A DNA stretch of 64,000 nucleotides. Origin: Candidatus Zixiibacteriota bacterium (lineage in GTDB: Bacteria > Zixibacteria > MSB-5A5 > GN15 > FEB-12). The position numbers were made by a program, and so were the translations under genes. The notes under the pieces were generated by a model. The model searched no databases and had not been told where the DNA came from. It worked only from the letters and a program-made list of their open reading frames with translations. The stretch spans positions 3,533,169 through 3,597,168 of the forward strand of contig CP070674.1 of the NCBI GenBank assembly GCA_020351995.1, written 5' to 3'. Every line of letters begins with the position of its first letter. The first letter of the stretch is position 1. Of the stretch, positions 8,922-23,570 are shown in pieces.

Positions 8922-9161
8922 ATTGTGTTTGTTGTTGACAAATTACACTTTTTGTGTTTATTTAGGGTATAGAATATCCCGCCGCTTGATTTATAACCGC
9001 CATCCTCACCTGTTTTCTGACGAAGCAGGATAGTGTTTAATTGTGACGCCAGGAGAAACAGCAGCACGTTGAGGAGAGACTCCGGAATTCAACAAGCCCA
9101 CCAGAATTCGCTGTCGTGTTCAGTGATGTTGCTTGTTTCTCATGTCTAAAGAGGAAGTAGC

Positions 9162-11822
9162 ATGAAGCGCACATTTGTATCTGTATTCCTTGTCATCATT
9201 GTTCTTACAGGATTTGCCGGATCCGTTTTGGCCGGATCCGTATGGGTTTCGCTAACTGACCGGACATCTCAGCTGGGACCTAAAGCCACCGTACTTGCCT
9301 CCAACGGAGCAGAAACCACCGTTAAATTCACCGTCGACGGATTCTGGTCAAGTGAGACCGGCGAAAACGGCCAGATCTTCACGCGGCTGAAATTCCCGGG
9401 ATATGGCTCAACACTCGATATCGGAAAACCGGAACTGCCCGTTATCTCCGAGTTGATCGGTGTTCCGGGCAATTCGCGTGTCCAGGTTGAGGTTGTAGAT
9501 TTCAAAGAGGAGATCCTCACGGGATATAACGTTTTTCCGCTCCAGACACCGCTTAGAGAAACCGAGAGACGCGTGAAGTTTGACATTAACCCGGTCCAGT
9601 ATTCCACTAATTCCTTTTTCCCCGAACAGATGGCCTCTGTCAGCGACCCGGCTATCTGGCGCGACGTGCGTGTGGTCACGCTCAAGGTCAATCCTGTCAG
9701 GTACAATCCCGTCACCGGCGAACTTAAAGTGTGTACGGAAATGACAGTGCGCCTGGATTATTCTGGCATCAGCGATATCAATGTCAAGACCGCTCCGACG
9801 AAACCCATCGCCCCCAACTATGCCCGAATGTACCGCAGCGCAGTTTTGAACTACAACTATTTGGGTCTGGAGGAGCGGCAGTCAGGACGCTTTAATGAAA
9901 CTACCGATGGAGGCTATGATTATCTTATAATCGCCAAGGACGATTACGTTGACGACCTCGCACCGTTTACCACCTGGAAGAACACTCAGGGGCTGACCAC
10001 GCAGGTGGTACCGATATCGCAGGTGGGCAACAAAGTTGACGATTTCAAAGCCTTTATCGCTGATGAATATTTCAGCAATGGCATCAGCTATCTTCTTTTG
10101 GTCGGCAACGAAATGGATATCCCTGCCGAAAAAATGCTGGGGATTTTTAGTGACTACATGTACACCTGCATTGAGGGCGATGACTATTACGCCGACATCG
10201 CTGCGGGGCGCTTTTGCGTGAACAACGAGACTCACGTGGACAACATGGTTAACAAGAGCGTGACTTTCGAATCCAACCCGCCGCCCGGAGAGTGGCTTGA
10301 AAAATCACTGCTGGTCGCGAACTGGGAAGAAGCACCGGAAAAATACCAGCAGTGCAAAGAAGAAATCAGAACCGCGGACCAGACCCCGTATGGCAGCTAC
10401 AGCGTCTTGAACCCGGATTTCACTACCGCCTACGGGGCATCGTTTGAGAACGGGGGGGATGAGGCTTCGAACGCCGACGTTGTCGACTACTTCAACGAAG
10501 GCTTCCGCCTCGTGAATTACCGCGGGCACGGTAACAATGATATCTGGTGGTACTGGAACGTCCACGAGGAGCACTTTGGCCTTTCCGATGTAGCCGCTAT
10601 TGACAACGGGCAGATGACACCGGTGGTCTTTAGTATCGCCTGCTATAACGCCAATTTACCTTATCTGGAAACTACGCTGGGTGAAGCTTTCACTCAGGGC
10701 GATGACGGTGCGGTAGCCCTTCTGGGCGCAACCGATGAATCCTACACCGATCCCAACCACGATTATGACAAACAGCTTTACAAGTGCGTGTTTGACGAAG
10801 GCATAAATGCCATTGGTGATGCCTCCAATGAAGCCTCCGTGAGGTTGCTCCAGTTGTGGGGAAATTACGGAATGCTTAATGCCAGAATGTATCTCTGGCT
10901 GGGCGACCCGTCGCTTCAACTTATTTACAATTCGACCCTGCCGCCGCCACCACCGGTGTTGGTTTATCCTGATGATGGGGCCGAGTTTGACGAACCGGCC
11001 CAACTGACACTGGACTGGGAGGATGTCTCGGGCGCCGTCTCATACCAGGTGCAGGTTGACGATGAGAATAGTTTTTCCGCTCCTGTGCTGTACGACGTGC
11101 AGGATATAATCCAATCGGAATGGTTAACGCCGGAGCTTGGATCAGGCATCTACTATTGGCGGGTGCGTGCAAGCGATGGCCGGATATTCGGAGGTTGGTC
11201 GGAGATCCGCTCATTTATGGTCGGGGTGCCTCCGCAGGAACCGATCCTCTATATGCCGGTTGATGGCTCGACCATAAAGACAGCCATGGTGCTGCTACAG
11301 TGGTATCAAATCGAGGGCGTGACGGAATATCTCGTCGAGGTCGATGACAATATGTATTTCCAGTCCCCTGAGAGAACGGCTCAGGTCGATATGTGCCCGG
11401 GAGGACTATGCGAGTGGGAAATATATCCCCCCCTGGTCGGTGGCCTTTATTACTGGCGGGTTCGGGCTAATCAGGCCGACTGGCCGTGGTCCGAAACGTG
11501 GTCGTTCCGCGTCAGGGGCAAAAATCCCCCCATCACAGCCGATGGCCCGACGATTCCTGACGACATTGAGTTGCTGCCAAACTATCCTAACCCGTTTAAC
11601 CCGACTACCGAAGTAAGCTTTGGATTACCCCGACCCGGGCATGTAAAGATCGAGATCTTTAACATAACGGGACAGCGACACTGTAAACTTGTTGATGCCG
11701 AGCTGTCGGCAGGCTACCACACCTACACCTGGAACGGCAGCGATGCCGCCAGTGGTATTTATCTCTGCCGACTGTCGACTGAGGACAAAGTTATTACCCG
11801 TCGCATGCTGCTGCTTAAGTAA
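9162..11822 (+). CDS. C25 (gingipain-like) cysteine peptidase with T9SS C-terminal sorting domain
   Basis: 886 aa with a signal peptide. C25-like core: YLLLVGN, YRGHG (His), SIACYN (Cys). There are two FN3-like modules and the tail NYPNPFNPTT...GIYLCRL...RRMLLLK. Confidence 0.8.
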   Translation: MKRTFVSVFLVIIVLTGFAGSVLAGSVWVSLTDRTSQLGPKATVLASNGAETTVKFTVDGFWSSETGENGQIFTRLKFPGYGSTLDIGKPELPVISELIGVPGNSRVQVEVVDFKEEILTGYNVFPLQTPLRETERRVKFDINPVQYSTNSFFPEQMASVSDPAIWRDVRVVTLKVNPVRYNPVTGELKVCTEMTVRLDYSGISDINVKTAPTKPIAPNYARMYRSAVLNYNYLGLEERQSGRFNETTDGGYDYLIIAKDDYVDDLAPFTTWKNTQGLTTQVVPISQVGNKVDDFKAFIADEYFSNGISYLLLVGNEMDIPAEKMLGIFSDYMYTCIEGDDYYADIAAGRFCVNNETHVDNMVNKSVTFESNPPPGEWLEKSLLVANWEEAPEKYQQCKEEIRTADQTPYGSYSVLNPDFTTAYGASFENGGDEASNADVVDYFNEGFRLVNYRGHGNNDIWWYWNVHEEHFGLSDVAAIDNGQMTPVVFSIACYNANLPYLETTLGEAFTQGDDGAVALLGATDESYTDPNHDYDKQLYKCVFDEGINAIGDASNEASVRLLQLWGNYGMLNARMYLWLGDPSLQLIYNSTLPPPPPVLVYPDDGAEFDEPAQLTLDWEDVSGAVSYQVQVDDENSFSAPVLYDVQDIIQSEWLTPELGSGIYYWRVRASDGRIFGGWSEIRSFMVGVPPQEPILYMPVDGSTIKTAMVLLQWYQIEGVTEYLVEVDDNMYFQSPERTAQVDMCPGGLCEWEIYPPLVGGLYYWRVRANQADWPWSETWSFRVRGKNPPITADGPTIPDDIELLPNYPNPFNPTTEVSFGLPRPGHVKIEIFNITGQRHCKLVDAELSAGYHTYTWNGSDAASGIYLCRLSTEDKVITRRMLLLK

Positions 11823-12546: not shown

Positions 12547-14955
12547 CTACTTCAACAGAATCATCTTTTTCGTTTCCGATATATTGTCCGTCTCCAGTCG
12601 ATACAGGTAAACGCCTGAGGATAACCCGGCGGCATCAAATTCCACGGCGTGCTCACCGGCTCCGTAAACCTCATTTGCCAGAACAGCAACCTTCTGCCCC
12701 CGGATGTTATACACCGTCAGCTTCACGTGACTGGCGGTCTCCAGAGAGAACCGAACGGCAGTCCGCGGGTTAAAGGGATTGGGATAATTCTGGCTCAGCC
12801 CGCGTTTATCCGGCATTGACGATTGTGTTTCCGCCCAGGCACCCGGAGTACTCTTGTAGACCGGGCCGCTTTCGCAAGTCTTGGTAATGAAGTTGGCTTC
12901 CGGATCATAGATGAAGTCATCGTGTCTGACATCCGTAACCTCAAAACACCAGTCGTCAATTGTTGGATCCTTCGGTTTGGGAGATACGATCAGCACCCTT
13001 CCTTCGGCATCGCTGGAGCCCATACGCTTACCATCGGTAGGACCGGTTACAGCCAACACTACCCTTGCGTTGGCGACGGGTCGATTGTTGTTGTCGTAAA
13101 TCCAGACTGCGGCTATTGCGCAGTCGTAGACACTGGGACCATATGTTTGCTGGAATGGGTACGCCAGCATAAATGCCACATGTGAGGTCGGAAGCGGGGG
13201 ATTAAGGGTATTGATGTAGTCTGTTCTCACTATAACGTCGCTTCCCATATCGTTGCTGGCGGTCAGAGTGACCGTGTACAATCCCGGAGAGGCATAGGTG
13301 TGGATGGGGAAACGTTCGTGGGAAACGGGAGTATCATCGCCAAAATCCCAGATCCAGGACGTGGCCCCACCGGTACACTCATTTCTGAACGAAACCTCGA
13401 GAGGAGCATCACCGCTGCTCGGATAGGCAACGAAGTCGGCCACAGGAGCCACCGTACTCGGAGGCGAGATCGATTCCAGCGCCATTCTCGCGTTGACAAT
13501 ACCGACGCCGACGTCTTTCGTCGGGTTGTACGGTTTGACATTGGCCGGGTCACACAGGATGCTCCATATATCCTGCGCTGACAGGTCGGGATTGTATGAC
13601 GCCAGCAAAGCGGCTACCCCCACTACATGAGGTGCCGCGGCCGAGGTACCCGAGTAGGCGAACAAGGCTTCCTCGTTATCGCCCACCATACCAAGCACGC
13701 CGGCTGAAGGTCCGGCAATATCGACCCAATCACCGTAGTTCGAACCTATCCACGGATCGCCGTTGAGTCCGGTAGCGCCCACGGCCATGCAATCGTCGCG
13801 GGTCGCCAGGTAGTCCGGTGTGCTGACGTTACTATTGCCTGCTGCAACTACGATCAGGACATCCTGACTGGCCAGGTAGTCTGCGGCCGCGGCCAACGCG
13901 GGTGTCTCAGCGGTGCCAAAGGAGCAATTGACCGCCACGACTTTTACGCCGCGAGCTTTCAGCTGGCCAAGGTACACCATTGCCTCGGCGGCATCGGCGA
14001 TCACGATAATGCCCCCAATGTTCGACACATAGCCGGCTCGGCAGGGCACGATCTTGACACCGTTGGCATCGCTGCCTGGGGTCCCGTCGTTGTATCCGCC
14101 CGCTACACCCGAGAGTTCGTAACCGTTGTTGGTTATGGCCGCAATTTCGCCGGCGCAGAAAGTTCCGTGGCCACTGGCGCCCTTCGGATCGTTGTCGGGC
14201 CCATCACAATCCACATCTTCACAAGGATACTGGATTAAAGGGGTGGTGAAGTCATATCCGATCACGTCGTCAACATAGCCATTGTTGTCGTTATCGATAT
14301 CATCACCGGGAATTTCCTGGTCATTGACCCAGATATTTCCGTTGGTGACATTATCATCCGGGCCCGGCGGATCGCTGCCGCCCAAGTCAGGGTTGGTATA
14401 TTCAACACCGCCGTCGATAACGGCGATTACAACCTCGGGGTTACCGGCCTCGATGTCCCAGGCCTGATCGGCGTCAATGCCGTATACGTCCTGTAGCTGC
14501 CATAGGCTGCTGTAGTAGGTATCGTTGGGGGTGCCAAATACTCTGCACGCCGGGATCTTGTAGGCACTGGTGACTGCAGAGACCTGCTGGTAAGCCTCGA
14601 TAATCGCGTCGATATTGGCGGGATCAACATAGACCTCGAAGAACCTTGTCAGGGCTCGTTCCTCCGGAGTCCGGGCCTGCTCTAAAGTTGTACCCCGAAA
14701 TTTCTTTTCGATGCGCGGAATACCGAACCGCTCGGTAACCGCATCCAAATCCGGGTTGCCGCGAAAGGCGTTTTGCGACCGAAGGGCCTGTGGGTCCAGA
14801 GATGCCACTGCGTACTGATCAAGTTGTACAATGATCCTGTCCGAAGCGTAGCCAACAAAGGATTCCCCTCTCTCCGGTTCAAATGGACTGGAAGCAGCCA
14901 TGAGGGGACCGGCTACCAGCGTCATTGCCAGTGCAAAGCACAAAATGCTTCTCAT
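12547..14955 (-). CDS. S8 subtilisin-like serine peptidase with PKD domain and T9SS C-terminal sorting domain
   Basis: 802 aa. Catalytic triad contexts are VIAVIDGG, HGTFCAGE and SGTSAAAPHV. It has a PKD-like module (FGDDTPVSHERFPIHTYASPGLYTVTLTA) and the tail NYPNPFNPRT...GVYLYRL...KKMILLK. Confidence 0.9.
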   Translation of the reverse strand: MRSILCFALAMTLVAGPLMAASSPFEPERGESFVGYASDRIIVQLDQYAVASLDPQALRSQNAFRGNPDLDAVTERFGIPRIEKKFRGTTLEQARTPEERALTRFFEVYVDPANIDAIIEAYQQVSAVTSAYKIPACRVFGTPNDTYYSSLWQLQDVYGIDADQAWDIEAGNPEVVIAVIDGGVEYTNPDLGGSDPPGPDDNVTNGNIWVNDQEIPGDDIDNDNNGYVDDVIGYDFTTPLIQYPCEDVDCDGPDNDPKGASGHGTFCAGEIAAITNNGYELSGVAGGYNDGTPGSDANGVKIVPCRAGYVSNIGGIIVIADAAEAMVYLGQLKARGVKVVAVNCSFGTAETPALAAAADYLASQDVLIVVAAGNSNVSTPDYLATRDDCMAVGATGLNGDPWIGSNYGDWVDIAGPSAGVLGMVGDNEEALFAYSGTSAAAPHVVGVAALLASYNPDLSAQDIWSILCDPANVKPYNPTKDVGVGIVNARMALESISPPSTVAPVADFVAYPSSGDAPLEVSFRNECTGGATSWIWDFGDDTPVSHERFPIHTYASPGLYTVTLTASNDMGSDVIVRTDYINTLNPPLPTSHVAFMLAYPFQQTYGPSVYDCAIAAVWIYDNNNRPVANARVVLAVTGPTDGKRMGSSDAEGRVLIVSPKPKDPTIDDWCFEVTDVRHDDFIYDPEANFITKTCESGPVYKSTPGAWAETQSSMPDKRGLSQNYPNPFNPRTAVRFSLETASHVKLTVYNIRGQKVAVLANEVYGAGEHAVEFDAAGLSSGVYLYRLETDNISETKKMILLK

Positions 14956-15289
14956 TCTACCTCCTTAGAATGCTGTTGAGATTTGCCCGCAATGAGTGAC
15001 TATGAGTCAACCGGCGGGCAAGACTGGTTACAAGTTCTGCCTTGTGTATCGGATTAGCTTGTTATTCGAAGACAAGGTTGCAGCAGGGACCATCGAGTAT
15101 GAGCTCGTGATCTCATCCTGCTATAACAATATACTCGATTCGCCCCCTGATGCAAGGCTATTCCGTCACTCCCCGCAGATCGACTCAACCCGCAGAGCGA
15201 CATAAAGAAAATACTGATCGCTCTAACAGTATATTATGCTGGGTCTGGCTGCCGGCGTTACCGGTGCCCAAGGTTGACACAATTATCGT

Positions 15290-15874
15290 TCAGGCCGTCA
15301 TCTGGTCGAAATCATGCCTTGGCTCAAACCCGTTGGTCCGCGGAAGTTCCTGAATCATCGGTTGACCGTGCCGTTTGATAATTGTCGCGGGAGTACCGAC
15401 AACAGTACAATCGGATGGAATGTCCCGCATGACCACAAAGCTGTTGGCCCCGATGCGAACATTGTTGCCAACGGTAATCGGACCCAGCAGGATCGCTCCC
15501 GTGCCCACCAGGACGTTGTCGCCGAGAGTGGGGTGTCGTTTGCCGGGATGCTTTCCGGTCCCGCCCAGGGTTACATTGTGAAATAAAACGGCGTTGTCGC
15601 CGATGACCGACGTTTCGCCAATAACAACACCACTGCCGTGGTCACAGAAGAACCCTTTGCCGATTCTGGCTCCGGGATGAATCTCAAGACCGGTTAGAAA
15701 GCGCGCTATTTGAGAAAGCAGGCGCGGGATAAAGGGGATTCTCAAACGGTACAACAGGTGGCTGAAACGGTGTATCGTTATCGCATGAAAACCGGGGTAT
15801 AGCAAAAACTCGATATTCTTCGCCGCCGGGTCATTGCGGTAGATCGCCTTGATATCTTCAATTATTGCCAGCAT
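15290..15874 (-). CDS. cysE: Serine O-acetyltransferase
   Basis: Left-handed hexapeptide repeats and the CysE N-terminal motif (DPAAKN...[14 protein letters not shown]). The start is trimmed to MLAIIEDIK at 15874. Confidence 0.85.
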
Positions 15875-16826
15875 ATTCTTTTTCCTTCCCATTTTGATTC
15901 TGTCCGTTAATCGTCTTTTCAAAAAGCGGAGTACTGATATATCGCTCTCCGGTATCGCAAATGAAAGTCACGACAAGTTTCCCTTCGCCAAGTTCTTTCG
16001 CTACCTCGAGGGCTGCCCAGACGATGGCCCCCGATGATACCCCTGCCAGTAGACCTTCTTCCGCGGCCAGTCGTCGAGCGGTGGCGAAAGCATCGGCTTC
16101 GTCAACGGTGATGACCCTGTCTACCACGGAGGGATCATAGTTATCCGGTACGAAACCAGCGCCGATCCCCTGGATTGGATGCGGGCCGCGTTCACCTCCG
16201 GAGAGGACCGGGGAGGCCTTCGGCTCGACGGCTACGACAAGGCAGCCGTATTGCTGTTTACAGAAACCGCCGGCTCCGCTGATGGTCCCGCCGGTGCCAA
16301 CACCGGCGACAAAAGCGTCGAGATGATCTCCTTCGAGGTCGGCGGCGATTTCCGGGCCGGTCGTTCGGCGGTGGATCTCAGGATTGGCTGGATTGTCAAA
16401 CTGAGAGGGCCCAAAAGTCCCGCTGCTCCGGGCCAGCTCGCCAGCTTTTTCAATAGCTCCGGTCATGCCTTTGTCACCCGGCGTCAGGACAATCTCCGCG
16501 CCGTACTGCTGAAGCAACGCCCGCCTTTCAAGCGACATAGTCTCCGGCATGGTGAAGATACATCGGTATCCTCGCGCCGCAGCCACCATGGCCAGCCCGA
16601 TTCCGGTGTTTCCCGATGTCGGTTCGACAATGGTCATGCCGGGTTTCAAGTTACCGGTCTTTTCGGCGGCCAGGATCATTGAAGCTGCTATGCGGTCCTT
16701 AACGGATCCCCCGGGGTTGTAACTCTCCATCTTACAGAGGACTGTTGCCGCCCCACCGGGCACTATCCGATTCAGACGAATCAGTGGTGTTCGCCCGATT
16801 GCTTCAACAACACTTGGAAATTTCAT
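15858..16826 (-). CDS. cysK: Cysteine synthase A (O-acetylserine sulfhydrylase)
   Basis: PLP-enzyme motifs ([32 protein letters not shown]). The likely start is MKFPS at 16826, 6 nt after AAGGAG. The ORF track extends it to 16844. Confidence 0.9.
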
Positions 16827-16882
16827 GGTCATCTCCTTCCGCAAGCCGGCCAGTCTCCTGTTTCAGGACCGAAAGCAGGTGC

Positions 16883-16922
16883 AAAAGAAAGCGGAGCCTG
16901 CTTCGGTCTGAAGAGGCTCCGC
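16883..16922 (-). terminator. Leader (attenuator-type) terminator upstream of cysK
   Basis: On the minus strand: GCGGAGCCTCTTC-agacc-GAAGCAGGCTCCGC followed by TTTCTTTTG. It lies inside the 5' leader, about 55 nt before the cysK start. Confidence 0.65.
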
Positions 16923-16989
16923 GAGCTTGTCTATTATATTTCTTTACAACGTCTTACATATTTATTCGCGCATCCACCCAGACCGATTT

Positions 16990-17067
16990 TCAGCTACAAC
17001 AACAACAGCAGAACACCCCGGTCGGGTTGCTGTCAACATTCGGACGGATGGTTGCAGTCAACTTCAT
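16990..17067 (-). CDS. Putative Cys-rich leader peptide (MKLTATIRPNVDSNPTGVFCCCCCS)
   Basis: A 25-codon ATG-initiated ORF (too short for the ORF track) ends TGC TGT TGT TGT TGT AGC TGA. It lies between the promoter and the leader terminator of cysK-cysE. I see no clear Shine-Dalgarno sequence. Confidence 0.45.
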   Translation of the reverse strand: MKLTATIRPNVDSNPTGVFCCCCCS

Positions 17068-17110
17068 ATACTTATCTAACACGTTATCGGCGTATTAAAG
17101 TTTCAATATT

Positions 17111-17138
17111 AGTATACTCGATTATTCGATTCTGTCAA
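17111..17138 (-). promoter_or_regulatory. Sigma70-type promoter of the cysK-cysE leader
   Basis: On the minus strand: TTGACA-16 nt-TATACT. Confidence 0.55.
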
Positions 17139-17441
17139 GGCGGTCTTTTTGGGTTGGTATGCAGCAAGCATCGGGCTGAGCGACCCCACCTCCACCGGTG
17201 GGGATTGAACTTGTCAGGCGCAGGCTTCTCGGTTCGCCAACTGATTCAATAACAAACAGTTAGGCCTATTGCGCGAAGTGTCCGTGGGGGAAGTGAGCCA
17301 ATTCTGCCCATTCAACCCGGATTCTGTGCCGTAAGCGCTTTAAAGACATACTGATCTCGTCATCGCAGGAGCTAATCTACCTGCCGAATGTGCCGATAAT
17401 ACTGCATAACATTAATAGACAGCCGGTTAATCAGGAACATC

Positions 17442-20400
17442 GTGGGTAAAATTAAGTACATTCTCCTCGCCTTTTGCATGATTTTCACCGCCGGGCAGAC
17501 GTACGCCGTTGAATTCTACGTTTCTCCAACTGGAAACAACAACAATCCGGGCACAAGTCCGGATCAGGCCTGGGCCTCGATAGAGCACGGTGATACGTCG
17601 GGACAGGTCGGTCCCGGCGACATAGTGAATATCCTGCCCGGAACCTACTTGCCTACTCAGACTATCACGCTAGACAGGTCGGGTACCGACTCAAGCTATA
17701 TCATATACCGTAAGCTCGGTCCCCGGTCGGTGATTATAGACGGACAGAACCTTCTGGATTCGGTTCTGGTTGTCAATGGCGAGTACCTTGATATTTATGG
17801 TTTCGAACTGACCAATTCACTCCACGACTGTCTCAAAGCCAACAATCGATACGGAACGGTGGCATATTGCTATGTTCATCACACCGGAGGAACTGGAATT
17901 GTAGCCAACCAGCGCGAACAGCTCCTTTTTCGTAACCGGGCTGCCTATAACGCGGGAACCGGTATTTATGTCACCGGATTTTGTGACGAGGCCGAGGTGT
18001 ACAACAATACTGTATTCGGCAATGGCGGTGCCGGTATAGAATTTCATTCCAGCGTTTCCACAGGGCGGGTCTTCAACAATATCGTTGCCCACAACCTGGG
18101 TGGTGGGATTATAGGCGATGAGGATATCATCTGCGGTTTCAACAACGCCTGCGGGAACGTCGGCGGAAACCTGCTTTTTGTCACTGATTCGGCTGGCGGA
18201 TTTAGCGTCGAACCGGGCTTCGCGGATACCACCTCGGGGAAGTTCGCTCTCAGACATACCGCCGCTGAACTGGACGCCGGGTTAGCTTTTGACGACTACC
18301 CCTTCAACGGTGCCGCTCCTGATATGGGAGCCTCGGAGAAGTACAACGTTTATTACGTCAGCCCCATCGGGGCAGACACGGCCGAGGGCCGGACCCTGGC
18401 TACGTCGTGGAAATCGATAGACAACGGCAATTCCTGCATCTTTCCCGGTGATACTGTCTACGTGCAACCGGGAATGTATTCAGATTCTGTGGTAATCACC
18501 GACAGCGGACTTCCAGACGACACGATCTGGTATATAGGTGTCGGGGACGGATGCTCCGTTGATGGTTCCGGGTACAATACGGGCGTACAGATATCCGCCT
18601 CGTACCTCGTCTGGATCGGCATCGACATCAATGGAAGCTTTTCATCCAACATCAGTATGGCCGGCATCGGGCTAAGACTTTCCGGCTGCGAAATCAGCAA
18701 CGCTCCCGTGGGACTATTCATCAATGGGCGGGAAAACGTTATCACCAATAACGTTTTCCGTAACAGTGAATACGCCGGGATCTTCTCGTGGACAACCACT
18801 GACGACCTGTACGCTAATAACACCTTTTACAACAACGGCCGCCGGGATATTTACCAGCCGATTTTCTACGATATAAACGTGTTCAACAATATCTTCGTCG
18901 CGCACGGAGCGGGGGATACAGCCATAGACGGTAGCGTAGGCAGTGTTATCTCACATTGTTTGTTTTACGGCTACGAGGAGATCTGCGGAAAAGAAGGAGA
19001 GCCGGGTGAAGGATGCCTTATTGGTCTTGATCCGGTATTTCTGAATCCTGACAGTGGTGACTTCCACCTTGACAGAACATCGCCGGCTATCGACGCTGGT
19101 TACGATCTTGGATTTCCCTTCCACGGATATGCCCCGGACATGGGTGCTATCGAGACAGCCCAGCCGGATTCTATGGAGATTGTAAGCTGCTGCGATACCC
19201 TCGTAGCGGACAGCACCTATCTGTTCGAGGCGCTTGCCTGGGACGCCGACGGCTTTCCGACCAGGCCGGGTGCCACAATGTGGTCACATACCTTTGTGTC
19301 CGGCAGTATCAGTTCCGGTGGGGTTTTTACTCCCGCACTGGTCGGTCAGGGAACAGTTACAGCCGAGGATGCCATTTACGGTTTGTCTGCCGAAAGCGCC
19401 CCATTGACAGTCGTACCGGGAACGCTCGACAGGATGACGGTAGAGCCGCAAAGGGTCAACCTTAGCGTTGACTCCACGCAACAATTTCTGCTATATGGTT
19501 GGGATATCCGCGATAACTCCGTTGACGTTTTTGGCGATGTTACCTGGGCGGCTTTCGGGAATATCGGCACTATCAGCCAGGCCGGCCTTTTCACGGCCAC
19601 TGACCCCGGCTATGGTTTTGTCAGAGCAACGAGTAGCCTCGGACCTACGTGTATTTCCGATACGATTACGGTTACTGCCGGTGATCCAAAGATCTATGTT
19701 AGTTCACTTACCATGCCGATCAGGGAAATAATTCCGGGAACCAATACCGGCGCGATTCTGGCCCTTGAGTTTGTCAATGACGGTCCGACAGGAGTTCCGC
19801 TCGACTCTGTCAGGTTGGAGTTCACCGGCGATGATCCCTTTGGTGCCACCCGCGAGGAACTGGACAGTCAGATAGAAGGGGTTGCTCTTTATCTCGAAAA
19901 AGACAATCAGTACACAGATCTAACCGATCTCGATAGTCTCTTGTGTACGGGGACTTTATCCGACGGTTATGCTGTGCTACCTACTTCCGGGTTGTTAATC
20001 CCTCCCGGCGGCGCGAATATCAAACTGACCGTAGCGGCTCTACTCGATGCCTTGAACGCCAGGGACGGTAATGACATCAGCTTTCAAATCGCCGGCCTGT
20101 CGGATATTTACCTGGGTGAGGAAATTGCCGTAGTGGCCGACTTTCCACTCGATAATGATGCCCAATACATCGTCAATACTTTCCCTTCGGATCTTGCGCA
20201 AATCAACCCGGTCGAAGGGTCAACGCTTTTCCAGGGACAGACCGAGCGGCTCGTCCTTGATTTCAATCTGCCGCCCAATGGGTACGCGGAGGACTTTCTG
20301 AGCTCAGTTAAGGTAGTCAACGCCGGGACCTTCGACGACAACGGCGAAACGTTAGAAATTCGCCTGTGGGCGGATCAGAGCGGTGATGGCTTTACCGCTG

Positions 20401-23400
20401 ACGATGCCGAGCTGGGCAGTTTCACTTATTCTTCCGGTTTCTGGCAAATCTCGGGTCTGTCGTATGCGCTGGCCCCCTACGGCCAGAGATTTTTTGTGAC
20501 GGTTGATATCAAAAGCAGCGAGTTGGAAGGGGGCATTGTCGATTTGGTCATCCCTGTTAAGAGCGTTGAATATGCTTCCGGAGCCGACGGCCCTGATGAC
20601 ACCGTCTTGAGGAACCCGATGCCTTTTGTGGTAATGCCGATCGACCGCGTCACGGCAGTATCGGTACCATCACCGTCGAGCTATGTGAGCGCCGGAAGTG
20701 CCGACAGAACCATCCTCACTTTCGGCCTTTACAACGGTTACAGCGAAGCCAAGACCCTGCAGACGGTTCGTCTCGCTAACCACACGCGGACCGCATCGAG
20801 TTCGGCTTTCGCCGATGCTGAGCTGGGACAGGTGAGCCTCCATCTGGATGTCAACCATAACCGTATTTTTGACGGAGATCCAGCGATAGCATCCGGCTAT
20901 TTCAGTGGCGGCCTGCTTAGTCTTTCACCGGCGGGTCTTTCTCTGGCAGCCGAATCTCTCTGTTACTTCTTCGTGGTGGTTGCTCTGCCGCATGAACAGG
21001 TCATCGACTCGGATAGCCTGAGCGTCACTATCGATCAGGAATCTGACATAGTGTTCGATGTTGTCGGCGGTGAATCTGTCAATATTAACGGTGACATGCC
21101 GCTCACGTCCGGGACCTACTTAATACTTGACGGCTCCGTGCGTTCGCAATACCAGGTTATCGAACAGGTCTCCAGTTCGGTAACCCCGGGCGACACTTCG
21201 ATTACTCTGTTGTGTTTAACACCAGCCGTCAACGGTGATCAGTTCGATACTCTCACGTCGCTGATGGTCAGCAATGCCGGAACTGCGGATGATTCGGATT
21301 TCGATGTTCTTGAATTGTGGCTCGATTTGAATGGGGACCAGCAATGGCAGTCCGGTGACTCACTGGTTAAGCAGTTTTCGTACACGGGCAGCGATTGGCT
21401 AACCGGGTCGCTGAGCCTTGAGACCAGCCCGGCTCCCGTCTGTCTGTTCGTGACAGGTGATGTTTCTGGTGCGGCAACGCCGGGTGCTACCTTTCAACCG
21501 CAAATTCCGGTGGACGGCTGCCAATTCATTTCGGGAAACGATGGTCCATTTGACGCCGCCCTGATGAGTCAGGCCGATATCGTAGTCTCGGCTTCGGGGT
21601 TACGAATATCGGCTATGCCGCTGAGCGAATCCTATTCGATCGGGCAACAGATAACTGTCCCGGCACAGGTTACTAATCTTCTGGGGACGCCGTTGGACAC
21701 GGTCTACTGCGAGTTTGTAGCGGTAAACAACGGTGTTGATAGTATTGTGCTGGGCCCGGTCTACCTTGGATCGGAGGAGACCACGCAATTTGACGGGTTG
21801 TTCACGGCCTCGGGTTCAGGCTCCGAGTCGTGGCGTATCCGCGCTTTCTCGGAAAACCCAATAGATTCCTCGGTAGCCGTATATACCGACGAAGTACGAA
21901 TCGATGAGGTTCCCAGCGACGTAGCGCTGAGTCTGGTGAACTCGGCGCCTACGGCGGTGAGCCGCGGTCAGGCTAACGTATTCCCGTTAAGTATAAGGTT
22001 CGAACAGGTTGATACATCGTCAACGCGTACTGCGGTGAGACTTGATAGCATACAAATTTCCGTCGAGGACGACTCCGGTCAACCCCTGGCTGCCAACTCG
22101 GTATTCTCGCGAATGGTTGTGGCCACCGATAATATTAATCTGGTGGTTGAGAACTCCCCGCCCTCCACGCCGTCGGTCTGGCTGCGTTTTACCGAGCCGG
22201 TTGTCGTGCCGGCGGCTGAGGACCAGCTCTTATCGCTACTTGTCGATATCGACAGCTTTGCCACAGCTTCGAATTTCGTCCTGGCGCTCAGCAGTCCGGG
22301 TGACGTCAATATTGTTGACGATAACACATCCCAGACGGTCGCGTTTGACCCCGGGGTGGTTTTCCCTATGATGACGGTCTCCTGCCGTATAGATGATCCT
22401 TCCCAGCAATTGGCTGTGTCCGGTCAGTCGACAATGAATACATGTGTGAACTATGGCCAGGAAGGTGTCGATGCATTAGAACTGTCCATTCGCCATCCGG
22501 GGAATATAGGGACGTCTCAGATCCAGGTGACCAGTCTCTCCCTGGAGATCATCGACGATGCGCTGAACGCTGTTGATCCGTCCGATGTGGTTGAGGCGGT
22601 ACGGGTTCTCAAGCGACAGATGATCATAGGCGAACTTGCTACGATAATCCCGGGCTCGACCAGTCTTACCGTTGATTTTGCCGCTCCACCTACGATTAGT
22701 CCCTCGGAAACGGAGCTATTGAACCTGCAAATCGATTTGAAACTCCAGTCACCGTACAGCACTTTCGCTGTTCGTATTGAAGATAGCACCGCCTTCACCG
22801 TTCGGGATCTTAGCTCAGGTTCCGTCGTTCTGGCGGTGTCCGATCAGGAACTGGCCACGGGAAATGTCTTCCCACTAATCAGCGGGTATGCCGGGTTCAA
22901 GAATCCTGCCGTCAGTCCGGAAATATGCCTGTCATCGGCGGTACCTGAGTATATCATCGGCGGCGCAGCTGCCGTCGAATTGCTCGAGATGACCGCAATC
23001 TACGAAGCCGCAGCAGACTACTCTTCGATCAGAGTTTCCGATGTCGTGGCTCGCATATACAATTCGGCGGGCGCGCTGGTTAATCCCAATGACCTCTTTG
23101 ACCAGATAGGAATTTCTGTCGAAGGCGGCCCGGTAACATATGATCCGTTCATCGAGTTACAGGATGGTTTCGCTGTTTTCCATCTTGGGAATAATGGCGT
23201 TGTGGTGAATCCGGGTGACACGACCTCGATAATGCTGGTGGGCGACATAGAGAACGCCACACCGGTCGAAGATTTTCTGCTAACTCTGCAAAGCGAAGGT
23301 GCCCTGACACTGTGTGATGCCACCGATACCGCCAGCCACCCTGCTATTCTGGTGTCGCCGACCTGCCCTTTCAGCTTTCCATTTGAAACAGAATTGTCGC

Positions 23401-23570
23401 AGGTTTACCTGCAAGCGGGTCGACCGGTGGTATCGATCGATACTCCCCCGACTCAACTGGCCTTCCCGGGACAGAATGGTCTGCCCCTGCTTCAAATAGA
23501 CCTCTCCTATGATAGCCCAACCCCGCAGGGTGATCTGCTGATGAACGCTATTGCTGCCACGGTGAGGTAA
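17442..23570 (+). CDS. Giant secreted surface protein (right-handed beta-helix + Ig-like modules + long series of divergent beta-sandwich repeats), N-terminal 2042 codons
   Basis: It has a signal peptide, PbH1-like beta-helix repeats (NNTVFGNGGAGIEF, NNIVAHNLGGGI) and Ig-like modules. It ends at a single TAA that is in frame with the next ORF. Confidence 0.8.
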   Translation: MGKIKYILLAFCMIFTAGQTYAVEFYVSPTGNNNNPGTSPDQAWASIEHGDTSGQVGPGDIVNILPGTYLPTQTITLDRSGTDSSYIIYRKLGPRSVIIDGQNLLDSVLVVNGEYLDIYGFELTNSLHDCLKANNRYGTVAYCYVHHTGGTGIVANQREQLLFRNRAAYNAGTGIYVTGFCDEAEVYNNTVFGNGGAGIEFHSSVSTGRVFNNIVAHNLGGGIIGDEDIICGFNNACGNVGGNLLFVTDSAGGFSVEPGFADTTSGKFALRHTAAELDAGLAFDDYPFNGAAPDMGASEKYNVYYVSPIGADTAEGRTLATSWKSIDNGNSCIFPGDTVYVQPGMYSDSVVITDSGLPDDTIWYIGVGDGCSVDGSGYNTGVQISASYLVWIGIDINGSFSSNISMAGIGLRLSGCEISNAPVGLFINGRENVITNNVFRNSEYAGIFSWTTTDDLYANNTFYNNGRRDIYQPIFYDINVFNNIFVAHGAGDTAIDGSVGSVISHCLFYGYEEICGKEGEPGEGCLIGLDPVFLNPDSGDFHLDRTSPAIDAGYDLGFPFHGYAPDMGAIETAQPDSMEIVSCCDTLVADSTYLFEALAWDADGFPTRPGATMWSHTFVSGSISSGGVFTPALVGQGTVTAEDAIYGLSAESAPLTVVPGTLDRMTVEPQRVNLSVDSTQQFLLYGWDIRDNSVDVFGDVTWAAFGNIGTISQAGLFTATDPGYGFVRATSSLGPTCISDTITVTAGDPKIYVSSLTMPIREIIPGTNTGAILALEFVNDGPTGVPLDSVRLEFTGDDPFGATREELDSQIEGVALYLEKDNQYTDLTDLDSLLCTGTLSDGYAVLPTSGLLIPPGGANIKLTVAALLDALNARDGNDISFQIAGLSDIYLGEEIAVVADFPLDNDAQYIVNTFPSDLAQINPVEGSTLFQGQTERLVLDFNLPPNGYAEDFLSSVKVVNAGTFDDNGETLEIRLWADQSGDGFTADDAELGSFTYSSGFWQISGLSYALAPYGQRFFVTVDIKSSELEGGIVDLVIPVKSVEYASGADGPDDTVLRNPMPFVVMPIDRVTAVSVPSPSSYVSAGSADRTILTFGLYNGYSEAKTLQTVRLANHTRTASSSAFADAELGQVSLHLDVNHNRIFDGDPAIASGYFSGGLLSLSPAGLSLAAESLCYFFVVVALPHEQVIDSDSLSVTIDQESDIVFDVVGGESVNINGDMPLTSGTYLILDGSVRSQYQVIEQVSSSVTPGDTSITLLCLTPAVNGDQFDTLTSLMVSNAGTADDSDFDVLELWLDLNGDQQWQSGDSLVKQFSYTGSDWLTGSLSLETSPAPVCLFVTGDVSGAATPGATFQPQIPVDGCQFISGNDGPFDAALMSQADIVVSASGLRISAMPLSESYSIGQQITVPAQVTNLLGTPLDTVYCEFVAVNNGVDSIVLGPVYLGSEETTQFDGLFTASGSGSESWRIRAFSENPIDSSVAVYTDEVRIDEVPSDVALSLVNSAPTAVSRGQANVFPLSIRFEQVDTSSTRTAVRLDSIQISVEDDSGQPLAANSVFSRMVVATDNINLVVENSPPSTPSVWLRFTEPVVVPAAEDQLLSLLVDIDSFATASNFVLALSSPGDVNIVDDNTSQTVAFDPGVVFPMMTVSCRIDDPSQQLAVSGQSTMNTCVNYGQEGVDALELSIRHPGNIGTSQIQVTSLSLEIIDDALNAVDPSDVVEAVRVLKRQMIIGELATIIPGSTSLTVDFAAPPTISPSETELLNLQIDLKLQSPYSTFAVRIEDSTAFTVRDLSSGSVVLAVSDQELATGNVFPLISGYAGFKNPAVSPEICLSSAVPEYIIGGAAAVELLEMTAIYEAAADYSSIRVSDVVARIYNSAGALVNPNDLFDQIGISVEGGPVTYDPFIELQDGFAVFHLGNNGVVVNPGDTTSIMLVGDIENATPVEDFLLTLQSEGALTLCDATDTASHPAILVSPTCPFSFPFETELSQVYLQAGRPVVSIDTPPTQLAFPGQNGLPLLQIDLSYDSPTPQGDLLMNAIAATVR

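Follow-up and report, generated by a model that had tools for sequence, protein, structure and literature searches.

The leader of cysK-cysE described here is probably a ribosome-mediated, cysteine-responsive transcription attenuator that is coupled to the supply of charged tRNA-Cys, a reading that draws on its anatomy, its conservation, its reading frame, two mutually exclusive helices and the dependence of constrained folds on ribosome position. It lies in a 64-kb window, which is the whole stretch of DNA that was analysed and whose nearest genomes are Zixibacteria, and it is most likely a trp-type mechanism applied to cysteine within a previously undescribed sequence family. An earlier note on this DNA had proposed a ribosome-mediated cysteine attenuator, and the proposal is supported by the conservation of the cysteine codons in frame and by a structure that competes with the terminator. 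The features of the region are as follows.

17111 to 17138, minus strand: sigma-70-type promoter, TTGACA-16 nt-TATACT, 11/12 consensus matches.
17075 to 17099, minus strand: tentative small 5'-terminal hairpin of the transcript, UUUAAUACG...CGUGUUAGA.
16990 to 17067, minus strand: leader ORF of 25 codons plus stop, MKLTATIRPNVDSNPTGVFCCCCCS, with homologous ORFs in nine relatives.
17040 to 17055, minus strand: segment 1, GCAACCAUCCGUCCGA, codons 5-10, candidate anti-antiterminator.
16996 to 17010, minus strand: five consecutive Cys codons, TGC TGT TGT TGT TGT, codons 20-24, the proposed sensing codons.
16966 to 16986, minus strand: segment 2, UCGGUCUGGGUGGAUGCGCGA, 5' strand of the predicted antiterminator.
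16905 to 16924, minus strand: segment 3, UCGCGGAGCCUCUUCAGACC, comprising the loop, two flanking bases and the 5' arm of the terminator.
16891 to 16922, minus strand: predicted intrinsic terminator hairpin, segments 3:4, GCGGAGCCUCUUC-AGACC-GAAGCAGGCUCCGC, -22.2 kcal/mol.
16882 to 16890, minus strand: terminator U-tract, UUUCUUUUG.
16833 to 16840, minus strand: cysK Shine-Dalgarno sequence, GGAAGGAG.
15858 to 16826, minus strand: cysK, cysteine synthase A (O-acetylserine sulfhydrylase), 322 aa, TIGR01139 equivalog.
15290 to 15874, minus strand: cysE, serine O-acetyltransferase, 194 aa, TIGR01172.

The promoter, leader ORF, hairpin with U-tract and cysK are all present on the minus strand as the earlier note had placed them, and the identities it gave to the two genes are borne out by TIGR01139 for cysK (430.7 bits, cut-off 350.95) and TIGR01172 for cysE (215.1 bits, cut-off 210.65), both above cut-off. 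The cysE gene shares 17 nt with the end of cysK, as it also does in the related locus L161. The comparison set consists of ten leader-bearing loci, nine of which are distinct (L161, L162/L163 and L164 to L170), found by a search of a protein collection followed by contig look-ups, with CysK proteins that are 75-88% identical to that of the window (75-100% where the related contigs are taken together); all of the compared sequences come from metagenome assemblies and are Zixibacteria-like contigs. The nine leaders form only three sequence subgroups (A, B and C), therefore the independent evidence they provide is limited.

The promoter of the window is the top promoter-like site within 15000-17600, and all nine related leaders have a promoter scoring 9-11 out of 12, with a spacer of 16 nt, 39-49 nt 5' of the leader start codon. 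Transcription in the window probably starts near 17104, with a 5' UTR of about 35 nt ahead of the leader ORF. The small 5'-terminal hairpin appears when most leaders are folded singly, no consensus for it was found over all nine leaders, and within subgroup A there is a weak consensus of 6 bp with one compensatory pair; its role is possibly that of stabilising the mRNA.

The leader ORF ends with TGC TGT TGT TGT TGT AGC TGA, the peptide thus ending in CCCCCS before the stop. Cys codons make up 5 of its 25 codons compared to 1.27% of the codons in the 30 long ORFs of the window, none of which has three consecutive Cys in frame, and the leader in this way over-represents the codons of the amino acid that its own operon makes. 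Runs of at least three TGY codons occur seven times in the window (TGTTGTTGT-type triplet repeats), with the leader run being the sole run of at least four on both strands, and under a first-order Markov model 0.0026 runs of five TGY codons would be expected in the window. An intergenic TGY run at 9058-9066 falls in a spurious 45-codon ORF that has no downstream gene on the same strand, and is therefore ascribed to chance.

Whether related cysK leaders conserve a Cys-rich mini-ORF was a check suggested in the earlier note, and an in-frame run of 4-6 Cys codons is kept in every one of the nine distinct leaders, with TGT and TGC varying between them; the remaining positions of the peptide and much of the leader RNA have diverged. 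The start codon in the Cys frame is also conserved in all nine, being ATG in eight and a TTG with a Shine-Dalgarno sequence in L168, and the distance from the start to the Cys run is 48-63 nt (16-21 codons), in each case a multiple of three. The repeat could be read in its other frames, with an upstream ATG found in the Leu frame of one leader and in the Val frame of two, and both the Leu (YTG) and Val/Ala (GYT) readings were rejected because conserved starts are missing. The caveat that the leader ATG is not preceded by a Shine-Dalgarno sequence is correct for the window; a recognisable one is found in only four of the nine leaders, and by a crude test in 26 of the 30 long ORFs of the window. 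The leader ORF is short, is predicted to be translated, and is located downstream of the promoter and ahead of the first biosynthetic gene.

The hairpin begins 67 nt past the leader stop codon, and a hairpin with a U-tract is found in all nine leaders, with energies of -15.2 to -22.2 kcal/mol and an RNAalifold consensus of 11 pairs, one of them compensatory. It occurs once in the window, and the idea that it is a dispersed repeat was rejected as it is single-copy there. Its position, past the leader ORF and ahead of the structural gene, is that expected of an intrinsic terminator, with the cysK ATG at 16826, 64 nt past the terminator stem. A second promoter was sought between terminator and cysK in all nine leaders, the best scores being 5-8 out of 12, and a cysK promoter 3' of the hairpin was rejected on that maximum of 8/12; with no site scoring above this, cysK would be transcribed only through the hairpin.

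The earlier note had identified no convincing antiterminator by eye, yet one is predicted, formed by segment 2 and the 5' arm of the terminator at -20 to -28 kcal/mol. The one contact that had been noted, between UCGGUCUG and CAGACCGA, is real and covers 8 nt, but it is not the whole pairing, being the outer part of the longer 2:3 helix. In the window the part of segment 2 that pairs in the nascent-RNA fold begins 11 nt past the last Cys codon and 5 nt past the stop codon. Segment 3 can pair with either segment 2 (the antiterminator) or segment 4 (the terminator), the two helices share alignment columns, and the antiterminator is predicted to be mutually exclusive with the terminator.

Such a competing structure, which the earlier note had wanted looked for, is seen in all nine leaders, in the RNAalifold consensus and in the counts of paired bases. 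When the ribosome is fixed on the Cys codons of the nascent RNA, segment 2 pairs in every leader with 9-10 nt of the terminator 5' arm, which is 11-13 nt long, and in this constrained fold the 2:3 energy is -20.3 to -28.5 kcal/mol across the nine. The 2:3 duplex is stronger than in shuffled sequences (z-scores of -1.8 to -4.5), and its mean energy is -21.2 kcal/mol between cognate segments compared to -13.3 kcal/mol between segments of different subgroups. RNAalifold recovers the helix independently with two compensatory pairs, and its two strands covary from one subgroup to another. Across the alignment 94.4% of the 2:3 pairs can form compared to 37-58% when the partners are slid, counts that used the same alignment from which the tested structure was derived, and the covariation score of 0.344 compares to 0.229 in shuffles, with none of 500 shuffles reaching it; double changes are seen in only 2 of the 10 antiterminator pairs.

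The choice between the two helices appears to depend on where the ribosome is. A ribosome mask placed at the stop codon, with a footprint size that was assumed from general knowledge, lowers the 2:3 pairing to between -0.6 and -5.0 kcal/mol in seven of the nine leaders and leaves -11.2 kcal/mol in the window and -16.1 kcal/mol in L161. The folds thus suggest that a ribosome stalled on the Cys codons would leave segment 2 free, and that one at or beyond the stop codon would mask it. The last Cys codon is 8-13 nt from segment 2 in all nine leaders, whereas the leader stop codon is found anywhere from 5 nt before segment 2 to 31 nt past its start, therefore it is relative to the Cys codons and not to the stop that the spacing is kept. 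The minimum free energy (MFE) structure of the full-length RNA free of ribosomes includes the terminator in all nine leaders, and even with the ribosome stalled it remains the MFE structure in seven of nine; readthrough would therefore depend on the antiterminator being trapped kinetically.

A putative role for segment 1 as an anti-antiterminator, through a 1:2 helix, is moderately supported by folding. The helix is predicted in most leaders and is stronger than in shuffled sequences in six of the nine (p<=0.04), with L170 borderline at p=0.069 and with L166 and L167 not doing so, and its mean duplex energy is -17.5 kcal/mol for cognate segments compared to -14.0 kcal/mol across subgroups. A consensus for it over the whole alignment was not found when RNAalifold was run on the ORF part of the nine leaders, where the Cys codons and a GCAGC-like motif 5' of them formed just a weak helix of 5 bp that shows zero compensatory changes; the 1:2 helix was therefore judged sequence by sequence. 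Segment 1 ends 27-41 nt 5' of the first Cys codon, which is beyond the footprint of a stalled ribosome.

The following mechanism may then be proposed. A strong promoter, with no sign of regulation, would start the transcript and the 25-codon leader would be translated co-transcriptionally. With ample Cys-tRNA the ribosome would pass the five Cys codons and reach the stop codon, and in most relatives it would go on for 10-12 codons beyond the Cys run. In either case it would cover segment 2, therefore segment 3 would pair with segment 4, the terminator would form and the polymerase would halt about 60 nt short of cysK. Under a shortage of Cys-tRNA the ribosome would stall on the Cys codons with its front edge just short of segment 2, which during the stall could capture the 5' arm of the terminator as soon as it is made, blocking termination and allowing readthrough into cysK-cysE. 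If no ribosome is present segment 2 would tend to pair with segment 1, here codons 3-9, and the terminator would form.

It is conceivable, although rather unlikely, that the relief of termination needs a queue of ribosomes (a disome) and not a single stalled one. Segment 1 is roughly where a second ribosome would sit on colliding with the stalled lead ribosome, and the spacer of 16-21 codons between start and Cys run might be set by the room that two ribosomes require. Were this so, the attenuator would read ribosome collisions, and hence the rate of initiation as well as the supply of Cys-tRNA. More simply, 1:2 pairing could be blocked by steric hindrance from the stalled ribosome.

Attenuation could also act on translation, with the stalled ribosome opening a structure that hides the ribosome-binding site of cysK and the hairpin being secondary, as in the mycobacterial type, where polycysteine sORFs of M. 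smegmatis act in this way (10.1101/834739). The U-tract region does pair with the cysK Shine-Dalgarno sequence in the MFE structure of the window, but this helix was rejected as it is not conserved, and RNAalifold found no conserved structure in the stretch from terminator to cysK over the nine leaders. What all nine do keep is a strong hairpin with its U-tract, it is this hairpin and not the Shine-Dalgarno sequence with which the conserved alternative helix competes, and with a -10 element 39-49 nt before the start codon the mRNA cannot be called leaderless. Control of this kind is considered decidedly unlikely here.

That the promoter, sORF and terminator form an independent small gene, encoding a Cys-rich micropeptide that might for example be metal- or redox-active, with the adjacency of cysK incidental or loosely functional, is very improbable. 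The unit does have a promoter and a terminator of its own, and within the peptide it is the Cys run that is conserved, but the peptide is barely conserved beyond this run, and the residues that follow it coincide with RNA segment 2. A separate gene would leave cysK without its own promoter (5-8/12), and would give no purpose to the antiterminator or to the spacing between Cys codons and segment 2. The leader unit is, moreover, always directly 5' of cysK, whichever gene is the upstream neighbour.

Within subgroup A five leaders have almost the same hairpin, loop included, in spite of large differences in their coding parts, which would fit an RNA element for ligand sensing or protein binding, with the near-invariant hairpin as the binding site and the ORF as a by-product. 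Subgroups B and C, however, have other hairpin sequences and yet keep the Cys run, start codon and spacing, and the loop and 5' arm are already constrained by their pairing with segment 2. T-box and SAM (S-box) riboswitches are the usual RNA controls of Cys and Met genes in Firmicutes, but when 16000-18000 was scanned with Rfam 15 at E<=10 only four unrelated hits at noise level came up, with neither of these riboswitches nor any other relevant Rfam family matched. A binding site would also leave the conservation of the frame unexplained, and this reading is regarded as highly unlikely. Chance, that is a TGT/CAA microsatellite beside an unrelated hairpin, is scarcely credible, since despite the seven TGY runs in the window a run of five is so rarely expected, the leader has the only one of at least four, and the run is kept in frame with synonymous TGT/TGC variation in nine diverged leaders and is absent at 160 distant loci.

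The distribution of the putative attenuator among relatives is patchy. A Cys-run leader was sought at 160 distant cysK loci and none was found, with only two loose chance matches. It is missing in L171, L172 and L173 (CysK identity of 74-76%), and in L001 and L002, the closest loci from the genome and metagenome CysK scans, which returned only relatives of up to 72% identity. Two more candidates for a poly-Cys mini-ORF with a terminator were seen on unrelated metagenome contigs. We know of no cultured representative of Zixibacteria (FCB group) and of no description of gene regulation in them, therefore the leader provides a concrete and testable regulatory element for the lineage.

The classical leader-peptide transcription attenuators are those of trp, his, leu, thr, ilv and pheA in E. 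coli and Salmonella. Like them, the cysK-cysE leader has a promoter that looks unregulated, a short ORF in which codons for the amino acid made by the pathway abound, and an intrinsic terminator ahead of the structural genes. One strand of this terminator also takes part in the antiterminator, with ribosome position as the predicted selector, and a moderately supported 1:2-like helix is predicted for when translation is absent. It differs in that the amino acid is cysteine and the host is of an uncultivated Zixibacteria-like lineage, in that segment 1 is 27-41 nt upstream of the sensing codons and does not contain them, and in that the ORF runs through segment 2 in seven of nine relatives instead of stopping before it. 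No sequence similarity to the leader families of Rfam was found. Cysteine genes are known to be controlled by the proteins CysB and CymR, by T-box and SAM riboswitches and by the translational polycysteine sORFs of mycobacteria, and to our knowledge cysteine is absent from the textbook list of amino acids under leader-peptide transcription attenuation.

The novelty that the earlier note implied was nevertheless overstated, as leaders with Cys codons have been published (PMC1262725; 10.1101/834739), including one with an intrinsic terminator before cysS (PMC8632094). The latter, uORFC-8-2 of Rhodobacterales, has a tandem-Cys uORF followed by a hairpin and U-tract (Brewer et al. 2021, PMC8632094), and was interpreted, as a prediction, as ribosome-mediated transcription attenuation responding to Cys-tRNA. 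These parts are shared with the cysK-cysE leader and both systems are predicted only. In uORFC-8-2, however, there are two Cys codons (positions 14-15), which lie within the first stem, and it is found in one alphaproteobacterial order (PMC8632094), whereas the leader described here has 4-6 Cys codons, precedes biosynthetic genes and not cysS, belongs to another phylum and has no detectable sequence relationship to it.

The polycysteine leaderless sORFs of mycobacteria are likewise short upstream ORFs with runs of Cys codons, and sense Cys-tRNA by stalling in order to switch on cysteine-related operons (Canestrari et al. 2020, 10.1101/834739). The case that was studied is translational, with the stalled ribosome preventing the sequestration of a downstream Shine-Dalgarno sequence and without a terminator (10.1101/834739); the leader ORF of cysK-cysE, on the other hand, has a 5' UTR and a conserved terminator, and has no conserved helix that sequesters a Shine-Dalgarno sequence. 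Candidate Cys leader peptides have further been proposed before cys/cbs operons in Mycobacterium, Propionibacterium acnes and Bifidobacterium longum (Seliverstov et al. 2005, PMC1262725). They likewise have Cys runs in short ORFs upstream of genes for cysteine synthesis and put these runs near the stop codon, but a conserved terminator hairpin is absent from them and Rho-dependence was only speculated upon (PMC1262725). Unlike these candidates, the cysK-cysE leader appears to have every part of a classical attenuator, and has them before the two core genes of cysteine synthesis. The concept of attenuation itself is unchanged by it, but it adds a case of convergent evolution in the sensing of amino acids by the ribosome, and suggests that searches for a poly-Cys mini-ORF followed by a terminator could uncover further such switches.

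The stretch ahead of cysK and cysE is most probably a cysteine-responsive leader-peptide transcription attenuator. The earlier note had described a promoter, a short ORF with a run of Cys codons and a hairpin with a U-tract ahead of these genes, each of which is indeed present, and it was right that the leader ATG of the window has no Shine-Dalgarno (SD) sequence, which was looked for and not found. The features are:

17138-17111, minus strand: promoter TTGACA-16-TATACT, 11/12 matches
17067-16990, minus strand: leader ORF of 25 codons, MKLTATIRPNVDSNPTGVFCCCCCS and stop
17055-17040, minus strand: segment 1, GCAACCAUCCGUCCGA, leader codons 3-9
17010-16996, minus strand: Cys codons TGC TGT TGT TGT TGT
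16986-16966, minus strand: segment 2, UCGGUCUGGGUGGAUGCGCGA, just 3' of the Cys run
16924-16905, minus strand: segment 3, terminator 5' arm with flanking and loop bases
16922-16891, minus strand: hairpin GCGGAGCCUCUUC-AGACC-GAAGCAGGCUCCGC, -22.2 kcal/mol
16890-16882, minus strand: U-tract UUUCUUUUG
16840-16833, minus strand: cysK SD GGAAGGAG
16826, minus strand: cysK start ATG

Both downstream genes score above the cut-off of an NCBI curated equivalog model, cysK as cysteine synthase A (430.7 bits, cut-off 350.95) and cysE as serine O-acetyltransferase (215.1 bits, cut-off 210.65). The last 17 nt of cysK are also the first of cysE (window 15858-15874), and so they are in L161, a cysK locus on a related contig, which suggests translational coupling in these two; the other relatives have a gap of 1-37 nt. 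Apart from the leader Cys run, neither strand of the 64-kb window has four or more TGY codons in succession; 0.0026 runs of five are expected there under a first-order Markov model, and across the 30 long ORFs of the window Cys makes up 1.27% of codons and three consecutive in-frame Cys never occur. The sole other intergenic TGY triple run (9066-9058), inside a 45-codon mechanical ORF (window 9037-9174, minus strand, ending in SSTCCCFSWRHN), was judged to be chance, as this ORF lies between two plus-strand genes with no same-strand gene downstream.

Divergent from the leader promoter region is a 2042-aa ORF (17442-23570, plus strand) with, by eye, many repeated beta-helix-like and Ig-like segments. 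Two large secreted-protease-like ORFs (12547-14955, minus; 9162-11822, plus) have similar C-terminal segments, ending in GVYLYRLETDNISETKKMILLK and GIYLCRLSTEDKVITRRMLLLK, that look like candidate type IX secretion C-terminal sorting domains; together with the cysK neighbour in L161, which has Peptidase_C25 and a weak Por_Secre_tail match, they are consistent with an organism of the FCB group.

The top genome matches to the window CysK are Zixibacteria MAGs (72% and 69% identity), neither of which carries a Cys leader. Closer CysK relatives came from a large protein collection, with leaders taken from their contigs, giving nine distinct leaders, the window included (CysK 75-100% identical), in three sequence subgroups. 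Their peptides, each followed by a stop, are:

Window, subgroup A: MKLTATIRPNVDSNPTGVFCCCCCS
L161, subgroup A: MKFDATIHPSVGSSLKKVCCCCCS
L162, subgroup A: MNYIEYIQSGIDSNHNAVSCCCCSLK
L164, subgroup A: MNYSVTSSPNQFRNLSHAACCCCCMKSVWKGTRIKV
L165, subgroup A: MNYSVTIRPNHTSGVQRSHLSCCCCLLSSRRGTR
L166/L167, subgroup B: MNSCPDNNPATVRSKAASCCCCCCHT(T/A)PWKGMET(H/Y)S
L170, subgroup B: MNTRRNNKPVFSRSMVMLCCCCCCHTTPWKGMASVG
L168, subgroup C, TTG start: LKTSLSIRHNRSAATFCCCRCCHEYGKGLVCPMQ

An in-frame Cys-rich mini-ORF is thus kept in nine distinct leaders, all of which have a promoter (9-11/12 matches, 16-nt spacer) 39-49 nt upstream of the leader start codon and, 57-76 nt upstream of cysK, a hairpin (-15 to -22 kcal/mol) followed by a U-tract. 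The element is absent from three related loci (L171, L172, L173; CysK 74-76% identity), and a comparable leader was found at none of 160 more distant cysK loci; it is thus a property of a sub-clade, conserved inside it.

In its other two frames a run of TGY codons encodes Leu (YTG) or Val/Ala (GYT), and since a change between TGT and TGC is synonymous in the Leu frame as well as in the Cys frame, the three frames were compared. A conserved start, 16-21 codons before the run, exists in the Cys frame alone (ATG in eight leaders, TTG preceded by GAGGA in L168), at distances of 57, 54, 57, 57, 63, 54, 54, 48 and 54 nt, all multiples of three; an upstream ATG occurs in one leader in the Leu frame and in two in the Val frame. 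An SD sequence precedes the start in four leaders (L162, L166, L167, L168), with a weaker AAAGGA in L170.

The nine leaders were folded under constraint with the ribosome at three positions. With the ribosome on the Cys codons and the terminator 3' arm still unmade, a long-range helix forms in 9/9 leaders (-20.3 to -28.5 kcal/mol), in which 9-10 nt of the terminator 5' arm, itself 11-13 nt long, are paired with segment 2, as are flanking and loop bases. This 2:3 helix is the antiterminator that the earlier note could not identify convincingly by eye, and its competition with the terminator in every leader, together with the conserved Cys frame, supports the attenuator interpretation offered there. 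With the ribosome at the stop codon the helix drops to -0.6 to -5.0 kcal/mol in seven leaders, where the ORF crosses segment 2; for the window and L161, whose stop comes 5 nt ahead of that segment, the values fall to -11.2 and -16.1 kcal/mol. The pairing is specific, with duplexes of segment 2 and the 5' arm averaging -21.2 kcal/mol when cognate against -13.3 kcal/mol across subgroups, and cognate z-scores of -1.8 to -4.5 against shuffled segment 2. RNAalifold on the nascent segments alone places a helix of 10 bp on the columns of the 5' arm, and in two of its pairs both partners have changed; on longer segments it gives the terminator on these very columns, the two helices being mutually exclusive. 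In the antiterminator 94.4% of cells are paired against 37-58% with partners slid one to three columns, and it scores 0.344 for covariation, where shuffles give 0.229 (0/500 reach 0.344); these counts use the alignment from which the structure came, and its nine sequences represent about three independent lineages.

Segment 2 starts 11, 11, 11, 9, 13, 11, 11, 8 and 11 nt past the last Cys codon, whereas the stop codon may lie anywhere between 5 nt ahead of this start and 31 nt beyond it; the spacing is therefore kept relative to the Cys codons and not to the stop. A ribosome covers roughly 12-13 nt, measured from where the A-site codon begins, and with this footprint and the 8-13 nt spacing a stall anywhere in the Cys run would leave segment 2 free, with the ribosome covering it one to a few codons on.

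In ribosome-free folds segment 2 pairs back onto leader codons 3-9, and support for this candidate anti-antiterminator (1:2) is moderate: duplexes average -17.5 kcal/mol when cognate against -14.0 kcal/mol across subgroups, and the comparison with shuffles gives p<=0.04 in six leaders and a borderline p=0.069 in L170, with L166 and L167 no better than shuffles. Unlike in the trp attenuator, 27-41 nt separate segment 1 from the first Cys codon downstream of it, which should place it outside the stalled-ribosome footprint; re-pairing of 1:2 during a stall could be blocked by steric hindrance from the ribosome between the segments, or by another ribosome waiting behind that one. Pairing is also possible between the Cys codons and a GCAGC(A)-like motif further upstream in the leader ORF (about 17035-17025, minus strand), a helix of 5 pairs by RNAalifold, mostly G-U and with no compensatory change. 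This helix may simply result from the repeat, or it may be a small pause hairpin within 1:2.

It is proposed that at low Cys-tRNA the ribosome would stall on the Cys codons, 2:3 would form first and block the terminator, and cysK-cysE would be transcribed, while at high Cys-tRNA a ribosome at or beyond the stop would mask segment 2, so that 3:4 forms and transcription terminates; with no translation, 1:2 and 3:4 would form, again giving termination. The terminator is present in the ribosome-free full-length MFE of 9/9 leaders and is still the full-length MFE in 7/9 stalled-state folds, so kinetic trapping would be needed, and this, with ribosome stalling and termination, is what we infer to happen in vivo. 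As no promoter-like site above 8/12 was found between the hairpin and cysK, cysK would be expressed by read-through only; conserved structure was not found there either.

Attenuation at the level of translation instead of transcription is disfavoured, as a structure sequestering the SD is not conserved. That the ORF is an independent micropeptide gene fits poorly with a cysK that has no promoter of its own and with a peptide that is unconserved where the RNA geometry is conserved, whilst a ligand- or protein-binding RNA is disfavoured by the conservation of the frame and by hairpins that have other sequences in subgroups B and C. The comparison with related loci excludes chance.

A seemingly independent Cys leader lies ahead of a Clostridia-like cysK on two metagenome contigs (L093:1170-1500, L102:1170-1500; OIYS01003672.1, ERZ773208 NODE-1222), this cysK sharing about 67% identity with Oscillospiraceae/Lachnospiraceae loci. 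The leader comprises a TATAAT box, the SD AAAGGAG, an ORF MMLRACCDSCLSMCCMGTL(R/C)CALEGHTFSRRVK with 6-7 Cys, a hairpin of -27 kcal/mol with U6 59 nt upstream of cysK and, about 13 nt past the last Cys codon, UCAUACGUUU, by eye complementary to the terminator 5' arm. Another Cys leader from an unrelated lineage is possible in L145:170-345 (Ga0066660_10149524), where a short ORF MKTCCRCRRGPFVS precedes a hairpin GGACCCGAGCGAAGCGUUCGGGUCU with a U-tract, and cysK starts 28 nt further on. In a relaxed scan, CC leaders with a terminator occur at 5/158 distant loci, while seven control amino-acid pairs give 0-3.

The leader matches no Rfam family, and no description of such a cysK leader turned up in the literature searched. 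Its architecture is that of the classical trp/his/leu/thr attenuators, and it would work in their way. Cys leader peptides have been predicted without terminators ahead of cys/cbs genes in Actinobacteria (Seliverstov et al. 2005, PMC1262725); polycysteine sORFs of M. smegmatis have been shown by experiment to act by translational attenuation (Canestrari et al. 2020, 10.1101/834739), these being leaderless, unlike the present ORF, which also has no conserved SD-sequestering helix; and uORFC-8-2 of Rhodobacterales is a two-Cys-codon uORF with an intrinsic terminator upstream of cysS (Brewer et al. 2021, PMC8632094). None of these Cys systems includes the present element, which has another target gene, another host phylum and a different number of Cys codons. 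Extensions of the textbook mechanism to cysteine, in other forms, thus predate this case, and the cysK-cysE leader adds a clean, complete and apparently undescribed example from an uncultivated phylum.
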